A stretch of DNA of 64,000 bases from an uncultured Solirubrobacterales bacterium (GCA_963731895.1 CAVSXO010000026.1:451285-515284), one strand, 5' to 3'; shown: positions 1-64,000, numbered from the stretch's first letter. Notes: generated by a model not told the origin, from the sequence alone. Program-made: numbers and translations.

Positions 1-26
1 GGCCGGCTGACGACGCCGCTCCTCCG

Positions 27-770
27 ATGATGCCGGAGACAGAGCGCATCGCCGCGGCGCTCGAGCCCGCGCTGAGGGAGGTCATCGACATGACCATGGA
101 GCGGGTGGCCAAGATCGAGCAGGAAACCATGCGTGAGGCTCGCGAGCTGATGGCGTCTGCGGGGCAGAACTCGCAGGAGGCGCTCGACCATTCGTCCCGC
201 CTCGTGATAGGCTGGAGTCCTGACCGGCACGGTGGCCCAGGTGACATCCAATTTGCGCACCGAGGTCGACGACGTGACCGAGTCCCTGCGGGGACTGCAT
301 GGATTGAAGGTGGAATTGCCGGAGGAGATGGCCGGGAATGCTCCAGATGCCGAGCCCCAGCACCCCGAGCCACAGCCTTCACCCGAGCCGGAGGCGCGAT
401 CCGAGGCTCCAGCGCCCGAGGCGCCGCAACCCCTCCGAGGCTCCGGCACCCGAGCCTCCAGCACCCGCCGCCGCCAGCACCCCCGGCTCCAGCACCCGCC
501 GCCGCAGCACCCGAGGCCCCGCCACCCGCCACGTCGATGCCCGACCCCGAGTTCGAGCCCAGCCCCGAGCTGACCGGCATGTTCCGCGAGCAGATCACGA
601 GGATGCGCGACGACGGCAAGTCACGTGACGAAGCCGAGCGTGTCCTGCTGCGCTTCAGGCTCGGTCACCGCTTCCTCGGGATGCTCGACGAGATCTACCT
701 GTCGGATGCGCCCAGCAGAAGGCGTCGCAACAAGCGGGGGCCGTTCACAAGGTTTCGGCGCCACGCCTGA
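27..770 (+). pseudogene. Hypothetical coiled-coil protein with Pro/Ala/Glu-rich linker; frame broken (>=3 shifts between ~205 and ~480)
   Basis: The helical N-terminus (MMPETERIAAALEPALREVIDMTMERVAKIEQETMREAREL) and the C-terminus (PDPEFEPSPELTGMFREQITRMRDDGKSRDEAERVLLRF) are in frame 27. The protein-like middle (AQVTSNLRTEVDDVTESLRGLHGLKVELPEEMAGNAPDAEPQHPEPQPSPEPE) is in the frame of ORF 232..573. Paralogous to the next gene. Confidence 0.4.
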
Positions 771-867
771 GTGCCGCGAGGCGTGGGCAAAGCACATTCC
801 GATTGCGCCCTTTCGGCGCTAGCAGTAGCCTGTAGCCCGTTCATAGCGAGCGAAGGAAGGCTCCAAA

Positions 868-1763
868 TTGGCCATTATCAAGCGCAGTGACGCAGACTCA
901 GGACCGCAGCCAGGGCTGGCGGATGGTTCGATCGCAGTGGAGGAAGCGCCGGCCGCCCCGGCAGCCGATCCCGCCCCCCCGGCGCCTCAGGGCGCCGTCA
1001 AATCGATGGCGGAGACGCTTCCGGCCGCGCTCGAGCCCGAGTTGCGGCGGATCATCGACACGGCCGTAGCCCGTGTCGCGGCGATCGAGCTGGAGGCGAT
1101 CCACGAGGCCCGCGAGCTCACGCAACGCTCCGAGAAGGAGGCGCGCGAGGCGCTGCGCTTCGCGCTCGACCGCGCTTTCAACCTGATTGCCACGCTGGAG
1201 CTGCTGGCGTCCACGGTCAGTGGGATGGCCGACGCGCTGAAGATCGAGCTCGACGATGCGATCGACGCTCTCGGAAGGTGCCGGAGCCCGAATCCGAGCT
1301 TGCCAAGGAGTTGGGGCAGACGGCGCCCGCACAGGAGGCGCCGATGCCGGAGCCCACGCCGTGCGCCAGCAAGCCCGCGCCGGAGCCGGCACCAGAACCG
1401 GTGCCTGTCGCCGTCCAACCGCCGCCGCCCGCCGAGCCGGAGCCTCAGGTCACCGCAGAGGAGCCGCCCGCCGCCTGTCGCGGGCAGCCCGCTCCCGAAG
1501 CGCCCGCCGTGGAGGAGCCTGCTCCCGCTGCTCCCGCGGAGGTGCCGCCCGCCGCGGCCCGTGGGAACGGTTACCCACCCGCCGAGCGGCAGGCCGAGTC
1601 ACTTGCCACGGCGACACAGAGCGAGCCGGAGCCGGAGCCGGAGCCCGAGCCAGAGCCGCAGGAGCCGCCCGAGCGCACGGTCGTTCGCGCGGCCGCGTCC
1701 GAGGACGGCGGGATGGTCCCCGCACGCCGTCGCGGGCTCATGCGCCGGCTGTTCGCCAAGTAG
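868..1763 (+). pseudogene. Hypothetical coiled-coil protein with Pro/Glu-rich tail (paralog of 27..770); one +1 shift near 1270
   Basis: TTG start at 868 preceded by GAAGGAAGG. Residues ETLPAALEPELRRIIDTAVARVAAIELEAIHEARELTQRSEKEAREAL...DDAIDAL are in frame 868. The sequence then continues as VPEPESELAKELGQTAPAQEAP...EPEPEPEPEPEPQEPPERT...RRLFAK-stop in the frame of ORF 1278..1763. Confidence 0.5.
1623..1658 (+). repeat. Hexanucleotide tandem repeat (GAGCCN)x6 encoding (EP)n
   Basis: Read directly: gagccg gagccg gagccg gagccc gagcca gagccg, inside the Pro/Glu-rich tail of the 868..1763 gene. Confidence 0.85.
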
Positions 1764-1833
1764 TCCCGGCAGGCGGCCAAACGCACCGACGGCGTCCGGC
1801 GGAACGTCCGCAAAGACGCACTACGCTTTCTCC

Positions 1834-2169
1834 ATGGACGACGAGGGTCACGCAGTCTCGTACAAGCTGCTCAAGCGCGGCACAGCCGTGCACTCCTCGG
1901 ACGGGGAGGAGATCGGGACGGTCGAGCGCGTGCTCGAGAACCCGCGCGAGCACATCTTCGACGGCATCGTGATCATCACGGCGCGCGGGGAGCAGTTCGT
2001 GGACGCACCCGAGGTCGCCCGGATCGCGGAGCGTCGCGTGACGCTGTCGATCCCGGCCGCTGAGGCGGCCCAGCTGCCCGAGCCCGACCCCGGAGCGCCG
2101 GAGTTCAAGGCCAACCTGGCGAGCGGGCGGCTGTCGCGACTCTTCGGCGGCGCCTGGCGCCGCAAGTAG
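1834..2169 (+). CDS. PRC-barrel domain protein
   Basis: ATG at 1834, in the same frame as the long ORF 868..2169. Sequence MDDEGHAVSYKLLKRGTAVHSSDGEEIGTVERVLENPREHIFDGIVIITARGEQFVDAPEVARIAERRVTLSI matches the PRC-barrel pattern. Confidence 0.7.
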   Translation: MDDEGHAVSYKLLKRGTAVHSSDGEEIGTVERVLENPREHIFDGIVIITARGEQFVDAPEVARIAERRVTLSIPAAEAAQLPEPDPGAPEFKANLASGRLSRLFGGAWRRK

Positions 2170-2187
2170 CCCGACCGCCGCGAAGGC

Positions 2188-2877
2188 CTACCAGGCGGCC
2201 GGTCGCCGGTCCCTGAAGAAGCCGTTCGTCGGGCCGTCGGCGGGCAGGGTTGCCAGCCACACCAGCGTGTCGACGCCCTCCTCGACGGAACGCGGGGCCG
2301 ACTGCCCGCCCATGTCCGTACGGACCCACCCCGGGCACATCGCGTTCACCTTCACGTCGCCGTGGCCCTCCGCCGCGAACGCGAGCTGGCGCGTGAGCAT
2401 GTTGAGCGCGGCCTTGGAGATGCTGTAGGCGGGCGAGTAGGCCTCGGGTTCGGTGATGGAGCCCGCCCCGCTCGAGACGTTCACGACGCGGCCGTAGCCG
2501 CGGTCGAGCATTCCCGGCAGAAAGGCGCGGGCGGTGCGCAGCGGCCCGAGCAGGTTCACCTCCAGCGTCTTTCGCATCAGCTCGTCGGTCATGTCCAGGA
2601 TGCGGCCGCTCTGCAACACCCCGGCGTTGTTCACGAGCACGTCCACGGTGACCCCGTCGCGCTCCAGGCGGCGCGCGCAGTCCCGGACACTGTCGTCGTC
2701 TGACACGTCGAGCCGCTCGAAACGAACGCCCAGCTCGGCGGCTGCCGCCGCCCCGGCATCGGGGTCGCGCGCGGTCAGCACCACGTCGAGCCCGGCGCGC
2801 GCGAGCTGGCGTGCGGCCTCGAGGCCGATTCCGCGGTTCGCGCCCGTGACCAGTGCCGTGAGATCGCCGGTTTCCAT
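2188..2877 (-). CDS. Short-chain dehydrogenase/reductase (SDR)
   Basis: METGDLTALVTGANRGIGLEAARQLA (TGxxxGIG cofactor motif), NNAG, and the YSISK catalytic Y-x3-K. ATG complement at 2875..2877. The upstream part of ORF 2188..3723 is antisense to the next gene and was discarded. Confidence 0.9.
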   Translation of the reverse strand: METGDLTALVTGANRGIGLEAARQLARAGLDVVLTARDPDAGAAAAAELGVRFERLDVSDDDSVRDCARRLERDGVTVDVLVNNAGVLQSGRILDMTDELMRKTLEVNLLGPLRTARAFLPGMLDRGYGRVVNVSSGAGSITEPEAYSPAYSISKAALNMLTRQLAFAAEGHGDVKVNAMCPGWVRTDMGGQSAPRSVEEGVDTLVWLATLPADGPTNGFFRDRRPAAW

Positions 2878-2986
2878 CGATTCCACTTGATTCTCCCTCC
2901 AACCGTGGGCTAGGCTCGCGCCGACGGAGGTTCGGATATCACGATGCGAGGGCCGAACTTGAGAGATCGACACGGAAGTTGGAGCC

Positions 2987-4261
2987 ATGGCGGGCTTACG
3001 GGAAACCATCAGGAGAAGGGGCTTCGGACCTTCGGGGCTGTGCTGCGTCGGTCTCCTGTTGGTCTCCCTGCTTGCCCTGCTGCCGGCGACGGCACCCGCA
3101 GCGATCACGGAATTCACGCTGCCCAACGCCAACAGCTGGCCGGCGGGGATCACCGTGGGTTCCGACGGGGCGCTCTGGTTCACCGAGGAGAACGGGCACC
3201 GGATCGGCCGGATCACGACCGACGGCGCCATCACGGAGTACCAGATTCCCACCATCCCGAGCGCACCGGCTGAGATCACCGCCACCAAGGACGGGAATCT
3301 GTGGTTCACCGAGTTCGGCGCCGCTCCGCTGCCCAAGATTGGCCGGCTGACGCCCGGAAATCCTCCAGTCTGGAGGGAATGGGAGCTTTCACCGGGCGCC
3401 GCCCCTGACGGGATCACCGTCGGGCCCGATGGGGCAATCTGGTTCACGGAGAACGGCGCGGGCAAGATCGGCCGGATCACGCTCGACGGCTCCTCCCTCG
3501 AGGAGTACGGCCAGGAGCACGGCTTGAATGGATCCAAGCCCGGGGACATCACGACGGGTCCCGACGGGCGGCTCTGGTTCACCGAATCCGAGGCCCACAA
3601 GGTCGGCGCCATCAGGCCCGGGAACCCACCCGCGATCGAGGAATACGACGTTCCCGGAGCCGATCCCTCTGGCATCGCCGCCTCCGGGGGCTCGATCTGG
3701 TTCACCATGCACGGTCTGGACATGGTGGGCCGGATGTCGACGCTCGGTCAGTCCTTGGACGTGTTCGGGCTTCCTCCCGGCAGCCGCCCTTCGGGGATCG
3801 CGCTCGGTCCCGACGGCGCACTGTGGTTCGCTGAGACGGATACCAACAAGATCGGCCGCATGACGACCACGGGCCGCCTCACCGAGTTCGCGCTTCCTCC
3901 AGATCCGAGCGGGCCCAATCTCCCGGGTGAGATCGTGCAAGGGCCGGACGGCGCGATGTGGTTCACCGAATCGGGGGTCAACAAGATCGGGCGCATCGAC
4001 GCCGGCCCCTCCACATCGGTGTTCGTCCCGCCGCCGTCCGTGCCGCCGCTGAAGATCACGACCACCAAGACGTCCACACCTGTGAAGAGGGCCTGCCGGG
4101 TGCCGCGGGTGCGTGGTCTGCGGATCGGGCAGGCCCGGAAGAAGATGCGGCGCGCGAAGTGCAGGTTCCGCATCCGCGGCAAGGGCCGCGTGGTCTCGAC
4201 CCGCCCGCGGGCCGGCGTGCGCACCCGCGCGACCGTGCAGCTGAAGGCGAAGCGGCGCTAA
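2987..4261 (+). CDS. Secreted Vgb (virginiamycin B lyase)-like beta-propeller repeat protein with basic PASTA-like tail
   Basis: Signal peptide (LLLVSLLALLPATAPA). About 7 repeats of GPDGALWFTE..NKIGRIT. C-terminal CRVPRVRGLRIGQARKKMRRAKCRFRIRGKGRVVSTRPRAG resembles a PASTA-type unit (inference). Confidence 0.85.
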   Translation: MAGLRETIRRRGFGPSGLCCVGLLLVSLLALLPATAPAAITEFTLPNANSWPAGITVGSDGALWFTEENGHRIGRITTDGAITEYQIPTIPSAPAEITATKDGNLWFTEFGAAPLPKIGRLTPGNPPVWREWELSPGAAPDGITVGPDGAIWFTENGAGKIGRITLDGSSLEEYGQEHGLNGSKPGDITTGPDGRLWFTESEAHKVGAIRPGNPPAIEEYDVPGADPSGIAASGGSIWFTMHGLDMVGRMSTLGQSLDVFGLPPGSRPSGIALGPDGALWFAETDTNKIGRMTTTGRLTEFALPPDPSGPNLPGEIVQGPDGAMWFTESGVNKIGRIDAGPSTSVFVPPPSVPPLKITTTKTSTPVKRACRVPRVRGLRIGQARKKMRRAKCRFRIRGKGRVVSTRPRAGVRTRATVQLKAKRR

Positions 4262-4313
4262 CCCGAGCTCGCCGGGCTCGACGCAGTCGGTCGATTCCGG
4301 GTAAGACGGTTCC

Positions 4314-4652
4314 ATGTCGCAATTGGCCGTCTCCAGTCAGGTCGCGGTGCTCTATGCCATCGGCCTGTTCGCGGTCCTGTTCCTCCCGGGTGCGGTGACG
4401 CTGCTCAAGGGCCGGAGCGGCCTGTTCGCCGTCGGGTGGCTGGTGGGCGGCCTGGTGTGGATGATCGTCTCACTCAGGCTCGCGCTGCCGGAGTCCTACT
4501 GGGCACGCTGGTTCTACGGGCCGGACAAGGTCTCCAGGGCGCGCCGGCGATATCCGAACGGCGGCTTCGGCGGGCCGGCGCACCTGATCGGCGCGGCACT
4601 CATGCTCGCCGCGCCGGTCGCCATCGGCGTTGCCGTGGCGATGGGGGTCTAG
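4314..4652 (+). CDS. Small integral membrane protein, unknown function
   Basis: 112-aa ORF with 3 hydrophobic segments (VAVLYAIGLFAVLFLPGAV, LFAVGWLVGGLVWMIVSL, LIGAALMLAAPVAIGVAVAM). Confidence 0.5.
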   Translation: MSQLAVSSQVAVLYAIGLFAVLFLPGAVTLLKGRSGLFAVGWLVGGLVWMIVSLRLALPESYWARWFYGPDKVSRARRRYPNGGFGGPAHLIGAALMLAAPVAIGVAVAMGV

Positions 4653-4683
4653 TGCCTGCGGTTTGCTACGCGGGTCTCGCGGA

Positions 4684-6421
4684 TCACGGCACGAAGACGC
4701 CCTGCCGGGCGAAGACCGTGTTGCCGGTCGGCGTGTCCACGTCACCGTCGGGTCCTCCGTCGAGCACATCCGTCTGGCTGAACTGCCAGATCGCGCGCTT
4801 GCCCGACTGAACGATTCCGGGAGTCACGGCGTTGGCGGCGGTGACCACGCTGCACGTGCTTCCCACGTTCGCCGCCCCGCCGGTCGGCGAGCACGGCACC
4901 GTGAACGCGAAGGTGCGGTCACCGAGCGTGCCCGACTCGGTCAGCGATGCGCCGTTCACCTTGTCGGTGATGCGCAGGGTCACCCGCGCCTGCAGCTCCC
5001 CCGGGTAGTCGGCAAGGCCGGCCTTGTTCCTGACATCGTCGATGGACGCCCTCAGCACGACGTCGCCCGCCCCCAGCTCGTACTTCAGTGAGCCCACGGA
5101 CTGGGCCGGGTTCGAGTTCGCGTCGGGCGAGCCGATCGTCACGAAGCCGGAGCTCTGGGCCGTCGGGCTGCATGACGCGTTCGCGAGGGGCGGCCCGTGC
5201 ATCCGGTTCGCGCTGCCCGTGGGACATGCGTTGAAGGCCGGCACGAGCGCGGCCCTGAACGGCGTTGCGCCCTGGGGGCGTGGATAGCCCTCGAGGGTCG
5301 TCCCGAGCAGAATCGAGACGTTGTCGACCAACTCGTTGGTGACCGCGATGTCGGCGCGGCCGTCGGCGTTGAAGTCGGCCACGGCGACCGAGCTGGGGCC
5401 GTCGCCGGCCGCGAGGTTGATCGGCCCCAGGAAGCCGAGGCCGCTTCCGCCGATCAGCACCGTCACGTCGTCCGAGGCCTGGTTGGCGACCGCCAGGTCC
5501 CGGTCGGTGTCGCCGTTGAACTCGCCCACGGCGATGTCGTCGGGGAGGCTGCCGACCGCGGTGTTGGTGATGCCCGTGAAGGTTCCCCCGGTGGCGCCGC
5601 CGAGCGCCGAGATGTTGTGGCAGGTCTCGTTCGCGGTCGCGAGGTCCGGGTCCGAGTCACCGTTGAACTCGCCTGACGTGATCGCGGTCGGGCTTCCGCA
5701 GACGCTGAAGTTGGTGGGCCCGGTGAAGGTCCCGCCTACGGCGCCGAGCAGCACGGACACGTTGTTGGTCCCCTCGTTCGCGACCGCCAGGTCGAGGTCG
5801 GTGTCGCCGTTGTAGTCGCGGATCACGATCCCGCGCGGCAGGCCGCCGACATTGAAGGTGGTCGGGCTCCCGAAGCTCGCGCCGGCGCCACCGAGCAGCA
5901 CGGAGACGTTGTTCGAGCCCTCGTTCACCGAGGCGAGGTCGGGATCGGAGTCGCCGTTGAAGTCCCCGACCCCCACGGTCTGGGGCGCCATGCCCACAGC
6001 GATGTCGGTCGGCCCGGTGAAGCTCCCGCCGGCGGCCGCCGAGCAGGATCGAGATGGTGTTCGCTCCCTCGTTCGCCACCGCCAGGTCGGGATCGGTGTC
6101 GCCGTTGAAGTCGCCCATTCCCAGTGACAGGGGCACCAGTCCGACAGCGAAGTCGGTCGGCGCCGAGAACGTTCCGCCGGCGCCGCCGAGCAGGATCGAG
6201 ACCGTGTTGGCGTGCTGGTTCACGATCGCCAGGTCCGGATCCGAGTCGCCGTTGAACTCGCCCACGGCGACCGTTTGGGGGAAGTTCCCCGTGGCGAAGT
6301 TGGTCGGCCCGCTGAAGTTGACAGCGTGCGCCGCCGGCGCCCAGACCGCGATGCAAGCCAGCATTCCAAGGAGCGGCGCCAGCCTGCCACCTCGCGTCGG
6401 GTTTCGTCCGTGATCGCCCAC
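4684..6421 (-). pseudogene. Secreted FG-GAP/VCBS repeat protein with conserved C-terminal module; single +1 shift near 6035
   Basis: Signal peptide MLACIAVWAPAAHA. About 8 repeats of GDFNGDSDPDLAV.N...N.VSVLLG. ORF 5657..6421 reads ...ISILLGG, and the sequence continues as ..FTGPTDIAVGMAPQTVGVGDFNGD in ORF 4684..5997 (extra C in GGCGGC[C]GCCGGC). The last 201 aa form the shared C-terminal module (4684..5289). Confidence 0.85.
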
Positions 6422-6520
6422 TCCGTCTCCTCCGTGATCCGTAATGCTCCCGGTGGCGCCTACCGTCCGCGCCGAGCCGACCCTAACCGGGCACTGACCC
6501 CGGTGTCAATTTCCCTGGTC

Positions 6521-7318
6521 GTGAGCGCGGCGGAAGCGATAGCTTGCAGCGCGGTGCTGCGGCTCGTCACGATCCCGATCAGCCACTACTGCGAGAAGGC
6601 GCGGTGGGCGCTGGAGCGGGCGGGGATCCCGTACCGCGAGGAGCGCCACGTGCAGGGCATCCATCGCGTCGCGGCGCGCCGCGCGGGCGGGGGCTCGACC
6701 GTGCCCGTGCTGGTCACACCCGAGGGCGTGCTCGGCGAATCGGAGGCGATCCTCGCCTGGGTGGACGAGCGCACGCCGCCGGAGCAGCGGCTCTTCCCGG
6801 CCGACCCGGCCGAGCGCTCCGAGGTCGAAACGCTCTGCCGGCGTCTGGACGAGCACCTCGGGCCGACCGGGCGGCGGCTGATGTACACGAACATGCTCCC
6901 GCAGCGCAGCCTGATGCTGCGCTTCAACAACCAGGGCGTTCCGGCATGGGAGGATCGCCTGCTCCGCTACGGGTGGCCCGTGATCATCCGGTGGGCGAAG
7001 CGCGAGCTCGGCATCCGCCCGGGCGTCGAGGTCGAGGACGAGGCCGCGGTGTGGCGCGAGTTCGACTTCGTCGCCGAGCTGCTGTCGGACGGCCGCGAGC
7101 ACCTGTGCGGCGATCGCTTCGGCGCGGCCGACCTGACCTTCGCGGCGCTGTCAGCCTCGATGATCGTGCCGCCCGTCTACGGGGTTCCCCTCCCGCAGCC
7201 GGACATCCTGCCGCCCCACATCGTGGCGATGGTCGAGCGCGCGCGAGACCATCCTGCCGGCCGCTACGCGCTCACGCTTTTCGAGCAGCACCGCCGGCCC
7301 GGCGTGCCCGTCGGTTAG
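6521..7318 (+). CDS. Glutathione S-transferase family protein
   Basis: LRLVTIPISHYCEKARWALERAGIPYREE (thioredoxin-like N-domain) plus a helical C-domain. The start is uncertain: in-frame GTG at 6521 or 6554. The upstream part of ORF 6212..7318 is antisense to the FG-GAP gene. Confidence 0.75.
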   Translation: MSAAEAIACSAVLRLVTIPISHYCEKARWALERAGIPYREERHVQGIHRVAARRAGGGSTVPVLVTPEGVLGESEAILAWVDERTPPEQRLFPADPAERSEVETLCRRLDEHLGPTGRRLMYTNMLPQRSLMLRFNNQGVPAWEDRLLRYGWPVIIRWAKRELGIRPGVEVEDEAAVWREFDFVAELLSDGREHLCGDRFGAADLTFAALSASMIVPPVYGVPLPQPDILPPHIVAMVERARDHPAGRYALTLFEQHRRPGVPVG

Positions 7319-9471
7319 CCGCCTTCCGTCTCGCTCGCCACCCGCGGCGGGATCGACGGCTTCACGCGCAGCCAGCGCGCCGGCCGTTCCGGCAGCCACC
7401 AGTTCCAGCGGCCGAAGAGCGACACCGCCGCCGGCACCAGCAAGGCTCTGAGCACGATCGCGTCGAACAGGATCCCGGCCGCCAACCCGGTGGCCAGCAT
7501 CTTCACGTCGGTTCCCGGGCTCGCCGCGAGCGACATGAACGCGAGGAACAGGATCAGCGCCGCGCTCGTGACCAGCCGCCCGGTGCGGCCGATGCCGCGG
7601 ATGACCGCCTGCTCGGTGGAGCCCGTCGCGTCGTACTCCTCCCGCATGCGGGCCAGGATGAACACCTCGTAGTCCATCGAGAGCCCGAACAGGAACGCGA
7701 AGATCATCAGCGGGATCCACGACGGCACCGAGCCCGTGGATGCGATGCCCCAGATCGCTTCGGAGCCCCATCCGAGCTGCCACACGACCACCAGCACGCC
7801 CCAGGCCGCCGCGATGCTCAGGACGTTCAGCGCCACCGCCTTTGCGGGCAGCAGCAGTGAGCGGAACGCCCGCGCCAGCAGGATGAACGTGATGATGCCG
7901 ATCAGCGCGATCATCAGCGGGAAGTTGCCGTAGACGGCCTCGATGAAGTCGTCGTTCAGCGCCAGGTTGCCTCCCACACGCACATCGGGACCGGCAGCGG
8001 CCGCGGCTTCGCGCACGCGGTCGAGCGTGTCGCGCGACTCCGAGGTCGCGCCGTCGGCCGTCGGGAAGACCTCGACCAGCGCGGTGCCGTCCTGGCGCCA
8101 CGCGCTCGAGTCGGGAGCCACGGCCCCGTGGATGCCGGCAAGACCGTCCATGTCACTTGCAACCTTCGCGGGGTCCGTGCCTGCGGCCAGCACCTCGTGC
8201 GGCAGCAGCGCGCCCGCGCCGATGTCGGAGTTCTTCAGCGCCTCGAGCCCGGCCTTGGCGTCGCCCTGCTTGGCGATCGTGTCGAGGTCGGATTGGCCCA
8301 GCTGGATGTTCCAGGCGGCGACCACCAGGGCGGCCACGATGGCGAGGGAGACGCCCGCCGCGATCCAGCGCCGGCGCACGACCAGCTCGGCCCAGCGCGT
8401 CCATGCCCGGCTCGCCTTGTCGTCGGTGCGCCGGTGCGGCCAGTCGAGCCGCCGCCCCCATTTCGCCAGCACGACCGGTAGCAGCGTGAGCGCGACGGCC
8501 GTGCTGACGAGCGGGATCAGCATGCCGCCGTACCCGACGCTGCGCAGGAACGGAAGGGGAAGAGCGACCAAGGCGAGCAGGCCGATCGCGACCGTCGTGC
8601 CGCTGAACACGACCGCACGCCCGGACGTCTCCATCGCGCGCTGGATCGCCTCATCGTTGGTGCGCCCGTGCGCAAGCTCCTCCCGCCAGCGCACCACGAT
8701 CAGCAACGCGTAGTCGATCGCGACACCCAGCCCGATCAGCGCGACCAGGAACTGCACGATCGGTGACACGTCGGTGAAGGCCGTGAGGCCCCACAGGAGC
8801 AGGAACGTGGTCATGATCGACACGATCGCCATGAACATCGGGACGAGCGCGAGGAACGACGCAAACACGAAGGCGAGCACGGCCAGGGCGCCCAGGCCGC
8901 CGACGACCGCCTCGACCAGGATCCCCGGACCCTGAGCGTCCTCGCCGCTGTCCTCCACGAGCGCGTCGTAGCCGGTCAGGTGCACCGGCGCGCCGGCCAC
9001 CGTGACACCTCGGAGCTCCGCCCGTGCCCGCTTCGCCGCGTCCGGGTTCTCGCCGAAGGCGGAGTTCGGGTCGCGGCGGGGAAAGGCGATCGCGAAGGTG
9101 GTGCGGCCGTTGGCCGACACGAACGCGCGGTCACCGGTGGACGCGTACGAGGCGATCCGTGCTCCTGGCAGCGCGCGCTGGACGCGCGCATCGACTGCGC
9201 GCAGCTCCGCGCGCACGCCCGGGGAATCAACGGTCTTGCCCGCGGGGAGTGTCACGACGGGGAGGAAGGGCGCCGTGTCGCCGCCCGTGTTCCCATACTT
9301 CTTCGCGATCTCGACGTTGGTCTCGTACCCCTCCTTGCCGGGCACCGAGAACTCCTGCGAGAGGGCATCCGAGGCGGGGCCGGCGGCCCCGATGCCGACG
9401 ATGGTCAGCAGGAGCCAGAAGGCGACGACTGTACGCTTGTGGGCGAGGACCCAACGGGTGAGGGAAGACAA
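7315..9471 (-). CDS. MMPL-family (RND superfamily) membrane transporter
   Basis: 718-aa intact ORF with two blocks of 5-6 TM helices separated by soluble loops. TTG start at 9471 with GGAGG 7 nt upstream. Typical MMPL N-terminus MSSLTRWVLAHKRTVVAFWLLLTIVGIGAAG. Confidence 0.9.
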   Translation of the reverse strand: MSSLTRWVLAHKRTVVAFWLLLTIVGIGAAGPASDALSQEFSVPGKEGYETNVEIAKKYGNTGGDTAPFLPVVTLPAGKTVDSPGVRAELRAVDARVQRALPGARIASYASTGDRAFVSANGRTTFAIAFPRRDPNSAFGENPDAAKRARAELRGVTVAGAPVHLTGYDALVEDSGEDAQGPGILVEAVVGGLGALAVLAFVFASFLALVPMFMAIVSIMTTFLLLWGLTAFTDVSPIVQFLVALIGLGVAIDYALLIVVRWREELAHGRTNDEAIQRAMETSGRAVVFSGTTVAIGLLALVALPLPFLRSVGYGGMLIPLVSTAVALTLLPVVLAKWGRRLDWPHRRTDDKASRAWTRWAELVVRRRWIAAGVSLAIVAALVVAAWNIQLGQSDLDTIAKQGDAKAGLEALKNSDIGAGALLPHEVLAAGTDPAKVASDMDGLAGIHGAVAPDSSAWRQDGTALVEVFPTADGATSESRDTLDRVREAAAAAGPDVRVGGNLALNDDFIEAVYGNFPLMIALIGIITFILLARAFRSLLLPAKAVALNVLSIAAAWGVLVVVWQLGWGSEAIWGIASTGSVPSWIPLMIFAFLFGLSMDYEVFILARMREEYDATGSTEQAVIRGIGRTGRLVTSAALILFLAFMSLAASPGTDVKMLATGLAAGILFDAIVLRALLVPAAVSLFGRWNWWLPERPARWLRVKPSIPPRVASETEGG

Positions 9472-9500
9472 CGCGTTACCTCCGCTTCGTTGATCGCATC

Positions 9501-54700: not shown

Positions 54701-56524
54701 CGCGCTCGTGTGGACGTCGCCGTTGCACCACGAGGACGTCACGCGCTTGAAGTCACCCGGCGTCGAGGCGGTGTCGAGGTCGTTGTTCGGCTGCGAGCCG
54801 GGCGCCACGTACACGGCGCAGCTGTAGCCGGCGCCACGGGCGAACACCTGCCCGCGCAGCGCGAATGTGGCGTGCCCGGGGTCGATCTGGTCATACCAGT
54901 CCGGCGCGGTGATCTCGACCTCGGGCGGCACGGCCGCGTCGCCGGTGCGCACGAGCGCATCCACGGCGCGATTCATGTTCACGCGCCCGTAGCCGAAGAT
55001 CTGGTCGTGCCCGGCGCGGGTCGGGTAGCGCTTCGTGGTAGCCAGGGGTGAAGGGACGGCGCTGTCGTACGGCGCGTTCAGGTTCGGGTCCGTGCAGGTC
55101 GGCAGGAGCGCCTGCGTGCACGACGGCTCGGGTTGCTGGGCGAAGTTCACGTCGTCGGCCTGCGCGGTCCCGTCGATCTGGCCCGAGGCCATGATCTGGC
55201 GGACCTCGTTCGGCGTGATCACGCACGCGCTCCCGTCGGTGCGCTCGCAGGTGGGGTGGTGGTCGAGCGCGCCGGTTTCGCGGGCGTTCAGCGCAGCGCT
55301 GTAGATCAGCCCCGCCATGCCGGACCCGCGGCCCGTCGCGTCCGAGGAGCAACTCACGCTGGGGATCGCGACGGTGATCTTGGACGAGAAGTTCGTGCAC
55401 CCGTTGAACTGGAGGTAGGAGCGGTTCGCCGGGGTGAGCGCGAGGTCGTACTTCTCGATCGAGTTCACGAGGATCACGTGGGGCAGGCTCGACGGCCAGT
55501 TGTGGTGCTGGGCGGCCTCGTCGGCGGCGGAGGCGATCACCGTCACGCCGTGCTCGTATGCGTAATCGACCGCGGCGCGTGAGAGGGAGCTGTTGTTCAG
55601 CGTGCCGAGCGCCTCCTGGATCACGTCGACACCGTTGTCGGTGGCGTAGATGGCGGCCTGCGCGAAGCGGTTCGAGTCGGCGATGAAGGAGTCGCCGACG
55701 CGCATGTGGATCACCATGCAGTTCGGGCAGGCGCCGATGTCGCCGCCGTTGTCGGCCTCACCTGAGGAGTCCCGCGCCTCGCCGGTCCCGTGGCCGTACT
55801 GCACGTCGTCGAACGGGTCGTTGTCGTTGTCGAGGAAGTCCCAGCCGACCATGTCGTCCGTGAACCCGTTCGAGTCGTCGTCGTCCCCGTCGCTGAAGGC
55901 GATCAGGATGTCCTGCGGGTCGAGCAGGTCGGACGGGCCCACGCCGAGGCCGCCCCGCTGCCCGGGGTCGCGCTCCACACGCGGGTCGCACGAGTAGTCG
56001 ACGACGTTGACGACGCCGTCGTCGTTGGCGTCGTATTGGCTCGTGTAGGTGGAGCAGACCTCACCGCTCTCGAGCGACGTGGAGCGGCTCGTGGCCGGAA
56101 TGGGCACCTCGCCCCTGTTCAGGCGAGTCTTGCGCCGCAGGTCGAGCATCGCTCCGCGGTCGTTCCACTTGATGCCGGAGTCGAGCACGGAGATCGTGAC
56201 GTCCGGGCGGCCGGTGGTGGTGGCCCAGGCGAGGTCGTCGTTCGGCGTCGTGGCATCGACCATGTGCGCGCCGCGCACGCCGTTCAGCTCGCGCGGATCG
56301 GAGTTGACGGGCTCGTTGCCCACCTCCTTGTCGGCCGAGTACATCCAGGTCTGCTTCGCTCCGGAGGTGAGCTCGCCCGGACGCGCGTCGGATGCGTCGA
56401 GCCGGTACTGCCCGTAGTCGCCCGGGTCGGAGCCCGGCAGGTAGGGGAAGGCGGCGTGGGCGGGCGGCCCCATCGCCGCGGCAGTCGCGACCACCAGCAG
56501 TGGCACCCACAGAAACCTGCGCAT
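51735..56524 (-). CDS. Secreted S8 (subtilisin-family) peptidase fused to FG-GAP-like propeller region and the shared C-terminal module (~1595 aa); two +1 shifts in the last ~100 nt
   Basis: GGGGGAGGA RBS. Signal peptide LWVPLLVVATAAAMGPPAHA. Asp box TISVLDSGI, His box YGHGTGEA and a Ser region CSSDATGRGSGMAGL. FG-GAP-like units (DLDGDNRNELVMGGSDGFVHAY, DMDRDGAPEVVATDMEGKVYAW, GDLTGDGQPEIVVG). The tail only reads ...VFMRQGVFIP-stop (TAG complement 51735..51737) after hopping through frames 1>0>2. As given, the ORF runs on to 51560. Confidence 0.85.
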
Positions 56525-57560: not shown

Positions 57561-59956
57561 CTAGGGCGCGAACACGCCCTGGCGCAGGAACGGGCGCCCG
57601 TCGGGGCCCACCACCTCGACCTGCCCGAACGCCCAGATCGCCCGCCGTCCCTCCGCCACGGCGCCGGGGATCAGCGCGTCGACCGTGGTCGACGTCGCGC
57701 ACGTCCCGCCCGCCCCGCCGGGTGTCGCTGCGCACTGGACCGGAATTTCAAGCGGCGTGTCGGTGACGGTCGCGGGATCGTTGCCTCCGCCGGGCAGGGT
57801 GGCGCTGCCGCGGTCGGTGATCCGCAGGGAGATGCGGGCGGTCAGCTCGCCCGTGTGGTCCTCGAGCGTTACTCGCTCGCGCACGTCGCTCACGATCACG
57901 GACACCTCCACATCGGCCTCGTCGGCCGAGGTGCGCGGGTCCCCGGGCGATACGGCGAGACGGGCGCTCCCAACCGAGGCTGCCGGGCGCGCGTTCGCGT
58001 CCGGCGTCCCAACGGTCAACGCAGTCGTCTCGAGCGCCGCCGGCGCGCAGGACCCGAACGCGAGCGGCGGTCCATGCTGCCGGTTGGCAACCTCGCAGGG
58101 GCGGTAGGCGGGGACCAGCGACACCCGCAGCGGGGTGGCGCCGCGCGGGCGGGCGTAGCCCGGGGGCTCGACCCAGATCGGGCTCGAGACGGCCTCGATC
58201 GCGCTCTCGCGCTGGAGCTGCAGCCGGTAGCGGCCCGCACCCACCTCGGGGAAGTCGAAGGAGAAGTCGTCGCTGGTCACGGGCACGGAGAGGAGTGGCG
58301 CGCCGTCCTTCAGCACGAACAGCGTGTACGAGCCGGGTCGCACCGCGCCGGGGCCGGCGCCGGTCACCCGGGCGGTGAACTGGACCCCGCCGCCGGGGAC
58401 CGCGTCGCCCATGATCGCGGGCGGCCCGCTCGCGCCCTGGGGAAGCGCCTCGAAGCGCAGGTCCGGGCCGTCGTTGCCGAACACCTTCACATAGGTATGG
58501 CGCGCTTCGACACCACGCTGGATGCCGCGCTCGGAGAGCTCGTCCGCGTATACGACCGTGGTCGCCTGCCCGATCGGAGACTGCGTCACGGGATCGGGGG
58601 CGCGACCGGCGTTGTGGGAGTCGCTCGAGCCGACGGCCGCGATGCGGTTGGCGTTCTGACCGCCGGCGTCCATCGCCTCCTCCCAGAACTGGATCGCGAG
58701 CGGCGTGAACGGGTTCGGGCCCGGCTGCGGGTCCTCCTTCAGGCCCGCGGGCCCGGTCGCGATCTCGACCGCATCGACGGCGCGGTAGTCGGTCTCCGCG
58801 GCGGTGTAGTCCCAGGGGCAACCACGGCACAGGAAGTCGAAGCCGGGGACCTCGGACGGGAAGATCCGGGGATGGTTGATCTGGGTGAACCCGCCCCCCG
58901 CGTGCACACCGTCGAACAGGGCGCTCGGCGGGCGGGCGGCGCGCACCGGGCGCAGGTCACCGTTCTCGCCGAACTCGTACACCGGCCCGGTGCGGTGATC
59001 GACGTAGCGCAGGCTCGCGTGGTTGTTGGCATGGCCGCGATAGGTGATGACCTCACTGGAGCGGACGATCAGCTTGCCGGGATGAGCGGGCTGATAGCGG
59101 CCGATCTCCCCCACGCCGTGTCGGTCACGTAATCCGACAGCGTGATGAAGTCGAGCCCGGCGCCGCCCTGCGCGAGCGGGCGGAACGCATAGTCGAACGC
59201 CTCGGTCATCGTGGCGTCCCCCAGCGATGAGTGCTCGGCATGGACGTGGAAGTCGCCCGCGTACCACCCGGCCTGCCCGCTTGCCGGCGTCTCGTCGTAG
59301 GGCGCCGGGGCGTATGGCTGCGTTTCCCACAACGGGTCGCTCGAGATGTCGACCTCGACGCGCCAGGCGACGCGCCCGTCGGAGTCTCCCTCGGTCTGCG
59401 AGGCGACCGCCGCCACTCCCAGCTCCACGGCCCATTCCCCGGCCGGGATCGGGCCGGGTCGAAAGCCGCGCGTCGTGTGGCCCTGGCGGTGCAGCCGGGG
59501 ATTCGCGAGGTAGTCAGTCTCGCTCGAGAATCCGTTCCGCGACAGCGTCACGTCGGGGTGGCTGGAGCCTCCCCAGCCGCGGAACTGCGGCTCGGCCCAC
59601 TGCACGCCCGGCGCCGGGCGCGAGTCCCACAGCCCGAGGTCGAGCACGTGCCGGATCCGGGCATTCGTGGGCGCTTCCGGCTGATCGTGGCAGTAGCGCA
59701 CGCGCACCGCCGTCGTGCCGGCCGGGACGTCGAAGGGAAGCATCACGTAACCGCGCTCGAGCGAGGTGTCGAACTCGCCGGTGATCACGCGATGTGGCTG
59801 CAGGGACGAATCGGCTGCGCCGGCGCAGCTCACCGGTGCGGCGGCGAGCCGGGCGGCGGGGTGATGAGCTCCGGCCGAGGCCGCCCACAGAGCCGCACAC
59901 GCGCCCACAACCGCGCATGCCCGAATCATCCGCTGTGCCGCTTCCCCCACTGACAC
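57561..59956 (-). pseudogene. Secreted PHP-domain (CehA/McbA-like) metallohydrolase with shared C-terminal module; one -1 break in a G5 run near 59110
   Basis: Signal peptide (alternative ATG at 59929: MIRACAVVGACAALWAASAGA). GDFHVHAEHSSLGDA (PHP HxH motif) is in ORF 59069..59956. ...DYVTDTAWG joins EIGRYQPAHPGKLIVRSSEV of ORF 57561..59435. SSDSHN. The final 200 aa form the C-terminal module (57561..58160). Confidence 0.8.
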
Positions 59957-60048: not shown

Positions 60049-62520
60049 GTGATGTCCCGATTCGCCAGCAGGTTCTGGGCTGCCTTCGGCGTGATGGCGG
60101 TCCTCGTTCTCGGCCTTCAGGCCGGGGCCGCGTCGGCCGCCCCGCCCGATTTCTCATCCCCGGGTGAGGCCTACGACGTGCTGCCGCCCGGCCAGGCCGG
60201 CGGCTTCTCGACCACCGTCAATTCGCGGGACCAGATCCCGCTCTACGACGGGCTCACTCCGCTCAAGGACCAGGTCTTCACCAACGACCTGCCCAACTAC
60301 TTCAAGAAGAACGTGTTCGGCCTCGGCGGCCTGAACGTGCAGCGCGTGCAGAGCTTCCCGGCCCGGCCGGATCTGGTCGTGACGCGTGACAGCTTCTCCG
60401 TCCCGCACATCGAGGCTCCCACCCGGGACGACGTCATGTACGGGATCGGGTTCGTGACGGCCGAGGACCGTGGCCTTCTGATGGACACGTTCCGTGGTCC
60501 CGGCCGGGTGGCGTGCCTCGACGTACCGGGGCTGAACCCGTTCCAGCTGGCACAGGGCTTCCAGCCGTTCAACTCCTCGTCGGACACGGAGGCATTTCTG
60601 GCATCGCAGGTCGATCTGGTCATGCAGGACCCGCGCGGTCAGCGGATCGTGGACGACATCGACAACTACCTCGCCGGGATCAACGCCTTCCGCACCCTGG
60701 CCGGGAGCACCGCCCGCCCGTGGAACCGCAACGACGTGGTCGCGACAGCGTGCCTGATCGCGGCCGTGTTCGGAAAGGGCGGGGGAGACGAGGCGCGCCG
60801 CGCGCAGCTCCTCTCCGCGCTGCAGGACAGGCTCGGCGAGCGTGAGGGCGAGCAGGTCTGGAACGACCTGCGTGAGGTGAACGACCCGGAGACGTCCGTG
60901 TCGATCGACGGCAAGTTCAACCAGCAGGCCCACAAGGCCAAGCACCGGATGGGCAACGCCATCATCGACGCGAACAGCCTCGATACGTCCGCGGCCGGCA
61001 GCTCCGCTGTGGCGCAGGAGTCGCAGCAGGCAGCCAGCAACGCGATCCTGGTCGGGGCGCAGAAGTCCGCGACTGGGCATCCCTTCTTCGTCGCCGGGCC
61101 GCAGGTCGGCTACTTCTATCCGCAGGTGCTGTACGAGATCGACGCGCACGGCGGCGGCATCGACGCACGAGGCGCGACGTTCCCCGGCGCTGGGCCGTAC
61201 GTCGAGCTTGGCCGCGGCATCGACTACTCGTGGAGCGCGACGTCCGCGGGCAACGACAACATCGACATCTTCGTCGAGGAGCTGTGTGGTGACGACACCC
61301 ACTACGTCTTCGACGGGGAATGCAGGGAGATGACGTCGTTCGACGCCGGACGGCTGGGGTTTGGCGCCGGCACGCCGGTCGTCTACAACGAGACGGTGCA
61401 CGGCCCGGTGCTGGGTTACGCGACGGTCGACGGCGAGCGCGTCGCGCTCTCGTCGTCCCGCACCACCCGCGGCCGCGAGGTCATGGCGGCCTTCCCGTTC
61501 GCGGACCTGAACGCGAACGTCCCGACCGACGCGGAGAGCTTCTTCGACGTAGTGTCGGAGATCGAGTTCACGTTCAACTGGTTCTATGCGGACGACAAGG
61601 ACATCGCGATGTACTCGAGTGGGCGGCTGCCTGTCCGCCACCCGCACGTCGACATCGGGTTGCCGACATGGGGCAACGGCCGCTACGAGTGGCGTGGCTT
61701 CCTCGACGCCGACAAGCACCCGCACGGCACAACGCCGGCCGACGGCACGATCGTCAACTGGAACAACAAGCCGGCCGCCGGCTGGGAGGCTGCGGACGAC
61801 ACCTGGGGCTACGGCTCGGTGGTACGCAACGACCTCCTCGAGCGGACGGTCGACCCGCCCGCGACGCACTCGTTGGCGTCGGTTGTCGGTGCGATGAACA
61901 AGGCCGCCACGCAGGACCTGCGGGCGGTGAAGGCGATCAGAGGCGTGCTGTGGGTGGCCGAAACCGGGCCCGCGCCGAACGCGCGCGTCCAGCGGATGGT
62001 CGAGCTGCTCCAGGACTGGCGGACGCAGGGATCACACCGGCTCGACCTGGACCTCAACGGCACGATCGACCACCCGGCGGCCGCCATCCTCGACAGGGCA
62101 TGGGCGAAGATCGCCGACGCGGTGATGGGTCCGGTGCTCGGTCCCCAGCTCGGTGACCTGGCCTCGCTCATGACCCGTGACAACGCTGCCAACAGGCAGG
62201 GCTCCTCCTACGGCAGCGGCTGGTACGGCTACATCGACAAGGACCTGAGGACACTCCTCGGCAGGCCCGTCGCGAAGCGGTTCAAGACCCACTTCTGCGG
62301 GAACGGGGACCTGGCGGCGTGCCGCGACTCGCTGTATGCGGCGCTCGACCAGACTGCCGCGGAGCTCGAGGACGAGTTGGGCAACCCGAATCCAGACGAC
62401 TGGCGCGCCAACGCCGCGGCCGAGAGGATCTTCTTCTCGCCCGGCTTCCTGGGCACCACGATGCGCTGGACCAACCGGCCCACGTTCCAGCAGGCGATCA
62501 GCTACTCGGGCCACCGTTAG
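60049..62520 (+). CDS. Penicillin acylase family protein (Ntn hydrolase, S45)
   Basis: 823-aa intact ORF with GGAGGAG RBS and a signal peptide (FWAAFGVMAVLVLGLQAGAASA). YDVLPPGQAGG. Nucleophile context QQAASNAILVGAQKSATGHPFFVAGPQVGYFYPQ. ...GIDYSWSATSAGND. Confidence 0.88.
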   Translation: MMSRFASRFWAAFGVMAVLVLGLQAGAASAAPPDFSSPGEAYDVLPPGQAGGFSTTVNSRDQIPLYDGLTPLKDQVFTNDLPNYFKKNVFGLGGLNVQRVQSFPARPDLVVTRDSFSVPHIEAPTRDDVMYGIGFVTAEDRGLLMDTFRGPGRVACLDVPGLNPFQLAQGFQPFNSSSDTEAFLASQVDLVMQDPRGQRIVDDIDNYLAGINAFRTLAGSTARPWNRNDVVATACLIAAVFGKGGGDEARRAQLLSALQDRLGEREGEQVWNDLREVNDPETSVSIDGKFNQQAHKAKHRMGNAIIDANSLDTSAAGSSAVAQESQQAASNAILVGAQKSATGHPFFVAGPQVGYFYPQVLYEIDAHGGGIDARGATFPGAGPYVELGRGIDYSWSATSAGNDNIDIFVEELCGDDTHYVFDGECREMTSFDAGRLGFGAGTPVVYNETVHGPVLGYATVDGERVALSSSRTTRGREVMAAFPFADLNANVPTDAESFFDVVSEIEFTFNWFYADDKDIAMYSSGRLPVRHPHVDIGLPTWGNGRYEWRGFLDADKHPHGTTPADGTIVNWNNKPAAGWEAADDTWGYGSVVRNDLLERTVDPPATHSLASVVGAMNKAATQDLRAVKAIRGVLWVAETGPAPNARVQRMVELLQDWRTQGSHRLDLDLNGTIDHPAAAILDRAWAKIADAVMGPVLGPQLGDLASLMTRDNAANRQGSSYGSGWYGYIDKDLRTLLGRPVAKRFKTHFCGNGDLAACRDSLYAALDQTAAELEDELGNPNPDDWRANAAAERIFFSPGFLGTTMRWTNRPTFQQAISYSGHR

Positions 62521-62572: not shown

Positions 62573-62595
62573 TCCGCCGCGCCTCGCTCGCCTGA

Positions 62596-62871
62596 CCTTC
62601 GCGCACGGTCACGCGCCAGATCGAACAGCAACGGGAAACCTTCGACGACGACGCATTTGAACTGATCAGCGACTTCATCGACGTTGGCGACCGAGTTGCG
62701 GTGAGGTTCATCTGGCGTGGCGCGGGCCACGGCCCTGAGTTGAACTTGGAGGCGACGGGCGTCTACACGGTGCGCAAGGGCAAGGTCCTCGCCATCGAGC
62801 ACTTCTGGGACCACGCGGAGGCCCTCGAAGCCGTGGGGCGGTCGGAGCAAGACGCTCACGCCGACTCCTGA
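62596..62871 (+). pseudogene. 5'-truncated SnoaL-like gene fragment (C-terminal ~85 aa only)
   Basis: Open frame from 62596 (preceded by an in-frame TGA) with no start codon: ...RQIEQQRETFDDDAFELISDFIDVGDRVAVRFIWRGAGHGPELNLEATGVYTVRKGKVLAIEHFWDHAEALEAVG.. then TGA at 62869..62871. Confidence 0.5.
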
Positions 62872-62894
62872 GCCTGCGTGATACTGCGGGGACG

Positions 62895-63323
62895 ATGTCG
62901 CACGAGAACGTGGAGGTCGTGCGAGCCTTCTTCGAGGCGTGGAACGCCGGGAACACGGATGCCGTTGTGGAACTCCTGGATGCCGACGTCGACTACTTCC
63001 CCTCACGCAAGCTTCCGGAGGCGCGGCCCTGCCACGGCCCGGAGGAGGTCTTGCAGTTCATCGCCCGCTATCTGGATGCATATTCTCGTCACGATTGGGC
63101 GATTCAGGAGGTGATCGAGGTGGGCGGTGACCGTTTCTTGGCACGCGTGAACTTGCGGGTCGAGGGTCGCGACAGTGGGGTGAAACTCGAGGGCGACCTC
63201 TACCACTGCTTTTGGTCGCGAGACGGGCGCTTCTTTCGGGTAGAGGATCACATGACCTTGAGCGGAGCCCTCCATGCGCTCGGGCTCGAAGGCGAAACGC
63301 TCGAAGCCGGTCTCTCGGAGTAG
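62895..63323 (+). CDS. SnoaL-like / NTF2-fold protein
   Basis: 142 aa. MSHENVEVVRAFFEAWNAGNTDAVVELLDADVDYFP...FLARVNLRVEGRDSGVKLEGDLYHCFWSRDGRFFRVEDH. Confidence 0.78.
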   Translation: MSHENVEVVRAFFEAWNAGNTDAVVELLDADVDYFPSRKLPEARPCHGPEEVLQFIARYLDAYSRHDWAIQEVIEVGGDRFLARVNLRVEGRDSGVKLEGDLYHCFWSRDGRFFRVEDHMTLSGALHALGLEGETLEAGLSE

Positions 63324-63325
63324 CG

Positions 63326-63529
63326 ATGTCGCAGGAGAACGTGGAGCTCGTCCGCCGTCTCGTTGCAGCCGTCGAGGTAACCACGCCGACCGCCATCGTG
63401 TTGACGGTTGGGGCCGGGTACCGGCCACCGTCCTGGATAGAGGTCGCATGGCGACACTTAGGCAGGACATCGCCGGCGAACGGCGCGCGGACTGCGAGAT
63501 ATTGCGCGGGCGCTGGGCCTACGGGATGA
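63326..63529 (+). pseudogene. SnoaL-like gene fragment (family N-terminus only, then non-homologous)
   Basis: The ATG at 63326, 2 nt after the previous stop, gives MSQENVELVRRLVAAVE (compare VSQENVELVRRLYAQL at 15183). The rest lacks family features. The ORF runs into the 3' end of the convergent gene. Confidence 0.35.
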
Positions 63530-64000
63530 AGATGCCCTGGCGGGCGAAGACCTGGTTGGGCGCGGTTTCGGCGTCGCCGTCGGACCCGCCGTCCATCACC
63601 TCGACGGGGCCGAGCGCCCAGATCGCGCGGGCGCCCTCGCTCACCAGGCCCGGCGTGATCGCGTCGAGGGTGCTCGTGACGTTGCAGACCGCGCCCGTGT
63701 TCACGTCCGGAGTCACGGCGCATGGGATCGTGGACGGCAGCACCAGGTCCTCCACGGTGCCGGTCTCGTTCACGCCGGGGAGGCTGCGGCGGTCTGTGAT
63801 GCGCATGGTGGTACGCGGCTGCACCTCACCGCTGTAGTCGGCAAGCGTGCCGGCGACACGCACGTCCGAGAGCCTGAACTCGAACACCACGTCCGCGTCG
63901 TCAGCGGGCGTCCCGGGGTCGCCGGTCCGCACCGCGTACCGGAATGATCCGACCGAGTTGGACGCCTTGGCGTTCGCGTCCTGCGTCCCGACCGTGAGGT
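63519..64000 (-). CDS. 3' part of a secreted protein ending in the shared C-terminal module (5' end outside window)
   Basis: ...DDADVVFEFRLSDVRVAGTLADYSGEVQPRTTMRITDRRSLPG...IPCAVTPDVNTGAVCNVTSTLDAITPGLVSEGARAIWALGPVEVMDGGSDGDAETAPNQVFARQGIFIP-stop. The frame is open to the window edge. Confidence 0.75.
   Translation of the reverse strand, partial: LTVGTQDANAKASNSVGSFRYAVRTGDPGTPADDADVVFEFRLSDVRVAGTLADYSGEVQPRTTMRITDRRSLPGVNETGTVEDLVLPSTIPCAVTPDVNTGAVCNVTSTLDAITPGLVSEGARAIWALGPVEVMDGGSDGDAETAPNQVFARQGIFIP

Follow-up and report, generated by a model that had tools for sequence, protein, structure and literature searches.

Clustered single-base frame breaks in a Solirubrobacterales metagenome contig as probable consensus errors of long-read assembly

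In the current study, we have analyzed a stretch of 64,000 nucleotides, hereafter the window, from an uncultured Solirubrobacterales bacterium (GCA_963731895.1, CAVSXO010000026.1:451285-515284), in which conserved genes such as lhr, putA and a gene for a ferritin-like protein are interrupted by single-base shifts of the reading frame. We conclude, with a probability of about 0.9, that these frame breaks arose as single-base errors in the consensus when a soil Solirubrobacterales population was assembled from long metagenome reads, i.e., as an artefact and not as biology. Same-species assemblies from other samples carry the broken genes intact wherever they cover them, and by analogy the genes of the strain-variable island that they do not cover would also be intact in the cells.

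The GC content is 70% across the window and the host is a Solirubrobacterales-type organism; its MMPL transporter is 63-72% identical to copies in metagenome-assembled genomes (MAGs) of Solirubrobacterales/Thermoleophilia, and the long-read catalogue of Microflora Danica supplies many of these. At this GC content, intervals bounded by stop codons are too wide for placing the breaks. Frame switches were screened with a frame plot of the GC content at third codon positions (GC3) and with a codon-usage Viterbi model trained on the long clean open reading frames (ORFs), and both point to dozens of same-strand switches. Breaks were located with a purpose-written protein-to-DNA aligner that permits frameshifts of one and two bases, run against intact Lhr orthologues (88-91% identical), against same-species proteins from L082, L085, L087 and L088, and against relatives of the PutA, ferritin-like and TolB-like proteins, the latter two as cluster representatives.

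The same-species sequences belong to four independent assemblies from other samples, with an overall nucleotide identity to the window of 91-99.5%: L082/L085, which is one contig of 148.7 kb (94-97%), L083 (97.6-99.5%), L087 (96.3%) and L088 (91-93%). The 224-aa response regulator of the window is encoded identically on contigs of other samples, and members of protein clusters led to further sibling pieces. Together the sibling contigs span positions 1-10054, 19870-30424, 34800-39890 and 42058-62585; where a single sibling was available, an event was assigned to the sequence whose own coding frame changes, as judged by codon score and GC3. Several other loci were rejected as references: 80 GTDB loci around MMPL homologues (L001-L080) had no synteny beyond MMPL, L081, which carries the Lhr orthologue P0008, was not syntenic with the window, and the Joint Genome Institute (JGI) contig L086 matched it only in a 96%-identical SnoaL-like gene.

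Frameshift-aware alignment to orthologues and same-species contigs placed 53 frame-breaking events in 16 genes of the window (Table 1), 47 of them +1 insertions and 6 of them -1 deletions, which corresponds to 89% insertions (binomial p = 5.8e-9). The itemized gene list totals 48 insertions, and the tally used for the statistics holds 47, with lhr entered as 16 sites. Several seeming -1 phase changes are in fact pairs of +1 insertions (26292/26380, 44696/44756 and 13450/13535). Not counted were a pair at 21287/21429 in the 730-aa gene, which codon score and GC3 polarization assign to L085 itself, an insertion at 47570 that is L082's own, the pair at 56702/56793, assigned to L088, and the changes at 24689/24724 and 37956, which lie in variable linkers and were treated as natural variation. 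Sorting the insertions by codon position left many ties, so that a third-position preference was unreadable. These numbers agree with the initial annotation, which had estimated about 50 disruptions in about 20 genes with about 90% +1 insertions; the formal count that it proposed as a check returned both the insertion bias and the clustering. Its counts for single genes were likewise recovered (15-17 events in lhr, five in the ferritin-like gene, four in the 198-aa membrane protein gene with three of them within 40 bp, six in the Tat-signal protein gene, and three each in the metallo-beta-lactamase-fold (MBL) hydrolase and TolB-like genes), and the -1 events that it had read in G5 runs near 41065 and 59110 were found at 41064 and 59108.

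The events are distributed unevenly along the window. Their variance-to-mean ratio is 2.9, 3.8 and 4.1 in bins of 1, 2 and 4 kb (chi-square p = 1.5e-13, 3e-12 and 1.4e-7, respectively), 17 of the 32 2-kb bins are free of events where 6.1 would be expected, and the median gap between events is 276 bp compared with about 830 bp in simulations. Of the 53 events, 45 fall into two blocks, at 10.05-23.7 kb and at 39.9-44.8 kb, while the three remaining stretches of the window have 0.16-0.20 events per kb. The strong clustering that the initial annotation had described by gene thus stands as clustering (p of the order of 1e-7 or below), but it is regional and not gene-specific. The frameshift-aware tabulation that it had suggested returned mostly non-homopolymer insertions, and neither local GC content (Spearman rho 0.19, p = 0.29) nor strand explains the clustering. 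Divergence from the L085 strain was also rejected as a cause, since events are few in 1-7294, the block that diverges most.

Table 1. Blocks, disrupted and clean genes, and other features of the window (positions counted from its first nucleotide; +1, inserted base; -1, missing base).
Feature	Coordinates	Strand	Events	Basis or remarks
Hot block 1	10054-23700		35 events, 2.56 per kb	Opens with a 9.8-kb island (10054-19870) that the L085 strain lacks
Hot block 2	39890-44800		10 events, 2.04 per kb	Starts with island 39890-42058, absent from L082 and L083
292-aa protein	868-1760	+	-1 at 1271	DNA alignment and aligner against L085; GC3 phase change
FG-GAP repeat protein	4687-6421	-	+1 at 6034	Same-species protein alignment
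lhr (Lhr-like helicase)	10065-14238	+	15 aligner events (17 single-base insertions and zero deletions at the DNA level): 10218, 10327, 10925, 11202, 11452, 11828, 12279, 12523, 12650, 13017, ~13100, 13106, 13284, 13450, 13535, 13908	Aligner against intact Lhr orthologues
putA (fused proline dehydrogenase and P5C dehydrogenase)	15225-18118	-	+1 at 18061, ~16675, ~16588; -1 at ~16785	Aligner against 65%-identical relatives P0347, P0349, P0352
Ferritin-like protein, twin-arginine signal	18260-19560	-	+1 at ~18858, 18800, ~18750, ~18705, ~18430	Aligner against P0468-P0476; Viterbi frame switches; Pfam Ferritin_2
730-aa Tat-signal protein	19711-21895	+	+1 at 19966, 20483, 21150, 21870, 21883; -1 at 21704	Aligner against intact 730-aa L085 protein; polarized by window codon score and GC3
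MBL hydrolase	21936-22992	-	+1 at 22689, 22442; -1 at ~22008	Intact L085 protein; Pfam Lactamase_B
208-aa protein	23180-23804	+	+1 at 23426	Aligner against L085 208-aa protein
Glycolipid_bind-family protein	26148-26701	+	+1 at 26292, 26380	DNA alignment and aligner against L082/L085
M74 peptidase	29743-30427	+	+1 at 30178	Same-species contig comparison
TolB-like (PD40) protein	40038-41352	+	+1 at 40662, 40981; -1 at 41064 by a G5 run	In strain-specific island; four references
515-aa membrane/spermidine-synthase-like protein	42075-43620	-	+1 at 43289 (extra A)	Window-private in three-way alignment
198-aa membrane protein	43686-44283	+	+1 at 43900, 44053, 44075, 44093	Same-species comparison
495-aa protein	44244-45730	-	+1 at 44756, 44696	44756 window-private; 44696 of same length in L083 and L088
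S8 peptidase/FG-GAP protein	51738-56524	-	C-terminal +1 at 51771, 51790/51796	~4.7 kb clean
796-aa protein	57564-59950	-	Single -1 at 59108	Window-private against L087 and L088
MMPL transporter	7318-9471	-	Zero	718 aa, 98.3% identical to L085 protein; 600 bp from lhr
Penicillin-amidase-family acylase	60049-62520	+	Zero	Intact 823-aa ORF in window
Pro/Ala-rich gene	27-770	+		GC3 phase change at ~210-540
Extra intergenic bases	25918-26145			174 + 42 bases more than L082
Low-GC block (62-63%)	30424-34800			Holds 910-aa STAND NTPase gene
tRNA-Arg(CCG) call	44891-44970	-		ARAGORN, 80 nt
c-di-AMP riboswitch	49564-49749	+		Rfam RF00379, 46.1 bits (gathering score 38)
RTX calcium-binding repeat protein	49777-51066			Directly downstream of riboswitch
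Common C-terminal domain, three copies	4687-5289, 51738-52430, 57564-58160	-		~200-225 aa, 37-56% identical

All eight events that are covered by at least two siblings proved private to the window in multi-way alignments (the extra bases at 43289, 44053, 44075, 44093, 44756, 51771 and 51790, and the missing base at 59108), so that the independent-assembly check proposed in the initial annotation found the indels retained in none of the siblings at these positions. Fifteen further events are covered by one sibling, and in each case the frame of the sibling is intact. L082/L085 carry the corresponding genes as intact proteins of 515, 495, 198, 228, 184, 730, 353 and 208 aa.

The siblings bear private single-base indels of their own, with 17 insertions and 4 deletions in L083, 9 and 6 in L087, 10 and 14 in L088, and 3 and 3 in L082, and the set of broken genes differs between assemblies. 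The acylase gene and most of the S8 gene are whole in the window and split in L087 and L088, where the acylase is called as 257 + 235 aa and as 639 + 109 aa, respectively. In the S8 protein cluster, the long-read ENA members are all fragments, and the JGI members include full-length proteins of 1576-1595 aa. In L083, L087 and L088, errors are no sparser than in the window, and a private single-base indel occurs about every 450-720 bp; gene calls on the sibling ENA contigs are heavily fragmented (e.g., the S8 protein of L088 is called as 137 + 175 + 186 + 591 + 401 aa).

Lhr is the gene with the most events. Its frame-stitched product is 82-88% identical to more than 100 intact orthologues, each about 1,385 aa long, and three orthologues put the 15 aligner events at equal positions, within a few bases. 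An apparent +2 shift at 13106 consists of two +1 insertions six bases apart, and an apparent -2 shift at 13908 of a +1 insertion plus a codon indel. The corrected protein is identical to the intact orthologue P0001 at 1258 of 1385 positions (91%) without stops, and the full set of Pfam domains is present and spans the joints. The match of putA to PDB 5UR2 consists of two stretches flanking a scrambled linker, and the true path was obtained from a three-frame reading. For the TolB-like gene, four references give the same frame phase for all three events and agree on their positions to about 20 nt, and the MBL hydrolase is 98.3% identical to an intact 353-aa protein of L085, with the Pfam Lactamase_B domain running full length across the joints. 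The relatives of the ferritin-like protein stop aligning at about 18390, and the same frame runs on through ITSGAMT-like heptads (18260-18430, minus strand).

Three of the insertions in the 198-aa membrane protein gene (44053, 44075 and 44093) lie inside 40 bp and are private to the window relative to L082, L083 and L088. Both insertions at the C-terminal end of the S8 gene are window-private relative to L087 and L088; this gene was aligned to the JGI orthologues P0308 and P0312. The deletion at 59108, located with the 796-aa protein of L088, creates the G5 run in which it lies (GGGGGAG in the window and GGGGCGAG in the relatives). In the 292-aa gene, the ORF 868-2169 remains open by chance despite the -1 event.

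The genes named as clean in the initial annotation (MMPL, both kinases, STAND, acylase and 4.7 kb of S8) have no counted events or are intact ORFs. Relative to same-species proteins, no window-attributable events were found in MMPL, in either histidine kinase or in over 20 further genes (18.5 kb in total), and the 4.7 kb of S8 that were compared with the JGI orthologues are free of events as well. The kinase gene at 24506-25921 has one compensated +1/-1 pair, the uncounted 24689/24724 in a variable linker, and its ORF is open. The acylase (823 aa) and STAND (910 aa) genes are each an intact ORF with complete domain matches.

The disrupted genes do not have the character of pseudogenes. The corrected paths of lhr, the ferritin-like, TolB-like and S8 genes, four of the five paths that were corrected, contain no stops, and the median identity to same-species proteins is 96.8% for broken and 96.6% for clean genes (Mann-Whitney p = 1.0). 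The hallmarks of pseudogenes looked for here, i.e., deletion bias, stops, raised divergence and inheritance by strains 97-99.5% identical, were not found, apart from one stop on the putA path. Only about 30% of the private insertions resolved at the DNA level extend a run, mostly of 1-3 bases, and most events are thus not of the homopolymer type of Nanopore indel. Besides, no common motif of a programmed frameshift is present at the shift sites, and the orthologues read straight through. In 14 of 70 private insertions from the five assemblies, the extra base matches the other allele of the adjoining polymorphic column (control 3.6%, p = 1.8e-7); this holds for 3 of 6 insertions in the window and 5 of 12 in L083, and 44053, 44093 and 51771 are examples of such sites. 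For instance, CTCC[G]GGC stands against CTCC or CCCG in other strains, and CCCCGCTG against CCCCGTG or CCCGCTG.

The assembly was most likely built with Flye and one polishing round from what we take to be Nanopore reads, as in the sibling contigs, which bear Flye-style names. We propose that extra single bases would be written into the consensus where it is poorly determined. If the reads of co-occurring strains are collapsed, both alleles of a polymorphic position could be placed side by side and yield one additional base, and such tandem alleles would explain part of the insertion bias and of the non-homopolymer context. More errors would be expected where co-occurring strains differ, and both hot blocks begin with segments absent from some of the strains (10054-19870 and 39890-42058); the collapse of a strain mixture is thus proposed to account for the patchy regional spread next to strain-variable islands, and local coverage would also play a role. 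The long-read MAGs of Microflora Danica were assembled with Flye (--meta --nano-hq) and one Medaka round without short-read polishing (PMC12313526), near-finished genomes from R10.4 data need about 40-fold coverage (PMC9262707), and in a soil data set from Oxford Nanopore Technologies (ONT) only 56.8% of the metaFlye proteins were full length (PMC13087279). The initial annotation had pointed to a context- or coverage-dependent technical artefact. The artefact is supported by the siblings, which do not have the extra bases, and a consensus problem in a strain mixture is favored over one of sequence context. Its alternative, an unusual mutational process in a subset of genes, found no support, as the events are private where they could be compared and signs of decay were absent.

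Several observations weigh against consensus errors as the explanation. The corrected putA path aligned to P0347 has one in-frame stop, which we provisionally attribute to the routing of this alignment (the -1 event was placed at 17015 and not at about 16785), because the frame-by-frame reading avoids the stop. The tandem-allele signature covers only about 20-50% of the testable insertions, and the insertion bias of the window (47:6) exceeds that of the pooled siblings (39:27; Fisher p = 4e-4) and is not fully explained. Most events here differ from the homopolymer indels that are usually given as the typical consensus error of Nanopore data (PMC9262707). The extra bases at 43900 (C5 compared with C4) and 44696 are also present in L083, and the length at 44696 also in L088, and these shared bases are either systematic errors or real. 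About 29 events of the two islands lie outside sibling coverage and are judged to be errors by analogy; the island 10054-19870, with lhr, putA and the ferritin-like gene, holds about 26 of them, i.e., about half of the total. A degenerate lhr pattern found no match in JGI metagenome contigs, no same-species copy of this island was recovered, and the PutA search returned relatives of at most about 67% identity. The events of this island are called errors by analogy and on their character, with 17 insertions in an otherwise well conserved lhr. It is extremely unlikely, in our estimate, that they are real and were produced in a dispensable, strain-variable segment by a mutational process that favors insertions and does not involve slippage.

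A different technical origin would be an error-rich long-read draft that was corrected patchily, e.g., by short-read or reference polishing that succeeded only where reads map uniquely, or an assembly of insertion-prone PacBio continuous long reads (CLR), with the hot blocks as the unpolished parts. The contrast between about 2-2.6 and about 0.2 events per kb resembles a mosaic of polished and unpolished sequence, insertion-dominated errors outside homopolymers are typical of raw single-molecule reads, and the hot blocks contain strain-variable islands, which would recruit reads least well. On the other hand, the siblings are Flye-named, the related MAG catalogue is Nanopore-only with one Medaka round, and a tandem-allele signature is not expected from the mere absence of polishing. 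We therefore regard this origin as unlikely, though not negligible, and patchy polishing or another platform would lead to the same verdict of an artefact by a different route.

Biological explanations are far less probable. That the genes are real, decaying pseudogenes in and around strain-variable islands, generated by an unusual insertion-biased mutation, would fit with the densest events lying in an island missing from the nearest strain, as decay is expected in dispensable DNA, with the two extra bases common to two assemblies, and with the fact that no independent lhr, putA or ferritin-like sequence from this species was found. However, Lhr has seventeen +1 insertions without a deletion, a nonsense codon or a larger lesion, and yet retains 91% identity; the broken genes are no more divergent than the clean ones; and, in contrast to slippage mutations, most insertions lie outside homopolymers. 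Natural indels of bacteria tend towards deletion and are linked to repeats, and Mira, Ochman and Moran are reported to have described this deletion bias in 2001. The tested events are, moreover, absent from strains 97-99.5% identical, and different genes are broken in each sibling assembly, which makes genuine decay very unlikely. A cellular decoding of the shifts, be it by RNA editing, by slippage during transcription or by programmed +1 frameshifting on the ribosome, could draw on the uniform +1 direction of most events as its sole support. The shift sites share no motif, slippery site or stop codon, the frames are uninterrupted at the same positions in orthologues and in same-species strains, and single genes would need up to 17 such sites, three of them in one case inside 40 bp, so that the probability of this explanation is practically nil.

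The comparison with same-species contigs also revealed differences in gene content. In L085, the segment 10054-19870 (lhr, SnoaL-like, putA and ferritin-like genes) is missing and the MarR gene directly adjoins the gene of the 730-aa protein. The neighbors within this island differ in their relatives, with hundreds of Lhr orthologues at 82-91% identity and nothing above about 67% for the fused PutA, which suggests that the island is a mosaic. In place of the low-GC block with the STAND NTPase, L082 has 2.1 kb with an epimerase gene, and the segment 39890-42058 with the TolB-like gene is the third one missing from same-species contigs. A 375-aa Tricorn/PD40 gene that lies between MMPL and GST in L085 is, in turn, missing from the window. 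The Pro/Ala-rich gene at the start of the window differs from L085 by indels of 2, 25 and 16 nt inside the gene and of 23 nt just past its stop, none of which were counted. Between the histidine kinase and Glycolipid_bind genes, the extra intergenic bases hold two copies of GCCAAAGTTCGG and could represent a small inserted element or a structured leader.

Other features were observed in the window. The c-di-AMP riboswitch directly precedes the gene of an RTX calcium-binding repeat protein, and riboswitches of this class are not usually followed by such a gene. The FG-GAP protein, the S8 peptidase and the 796-aa protein, all large and secreted, bear a common C-terminal domain that starts at about PRPxGATPxRxxLVPA and has no Pfam match, and that may be an undescribed sorting or anchoring domain. 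The tRNA-Arg(CCG) called by ARAGORN lies inside the coding region of the 495-aa protein, where Rfam has no tRNA at its gathering threshold, and is probably a false positive.

Overall, we attach no biological significance to the frame breaks, since other strains have intact copies of the tested genes and the remaining genes are very probably intact as well. In both hot blocks, inferences on completeness or metabolism are unreliable, as are gene calls and counts of pseudogenes, and the same applies to the sibling long-read MAGs from soil; frameshift-aware annotation or re-polishing is therefore needed. The observation of +1 bases from tandem alleles may help the builders of polishers for strain-mixed metagenomes.

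Genuine accumulation of pseudogenes is known from Mycobacterium leprae and from recent host-restricted symbionts. The window resembles such genomes in its many disrupted frames, but differs from them in that deletion bias, a link to homopolymers or repeats, nonsense and missense changes, and inheritance by relatives are not seen. A likeness also exists to the artefacts of collapsed strains that Strainberry, Strainy and Floria address, as co-occurring strains of 91-99.5% identity, islands, errors near these islands and mixed alleles are found here as well; the gain of one base by keeping both alleles is our own proposal, for which we came across no published description. Another known system is that of the indel errors of Nanopore assemblies that truncate MAG proteins, which the IDEEL test quantifies and tools like proovframe mend (PMC9262707, PMC13087279, bioRxiv 10.1101/2021.08.23.457338). 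That literature stresses homopolymers, unlike the window, where 89% of the events are insertions, and unlike the resolvable insertions of window and siblings, about 70% of which extend no homopolymer and about 20-50% of which have tandem alleles. In common with those errors, the single-base indels of the window break conserved ORFs, are private to one assembly and recur as the same defect elsewhere in the siblings, and such errors are commoner at low coverage and in soil data sets of high complexity.

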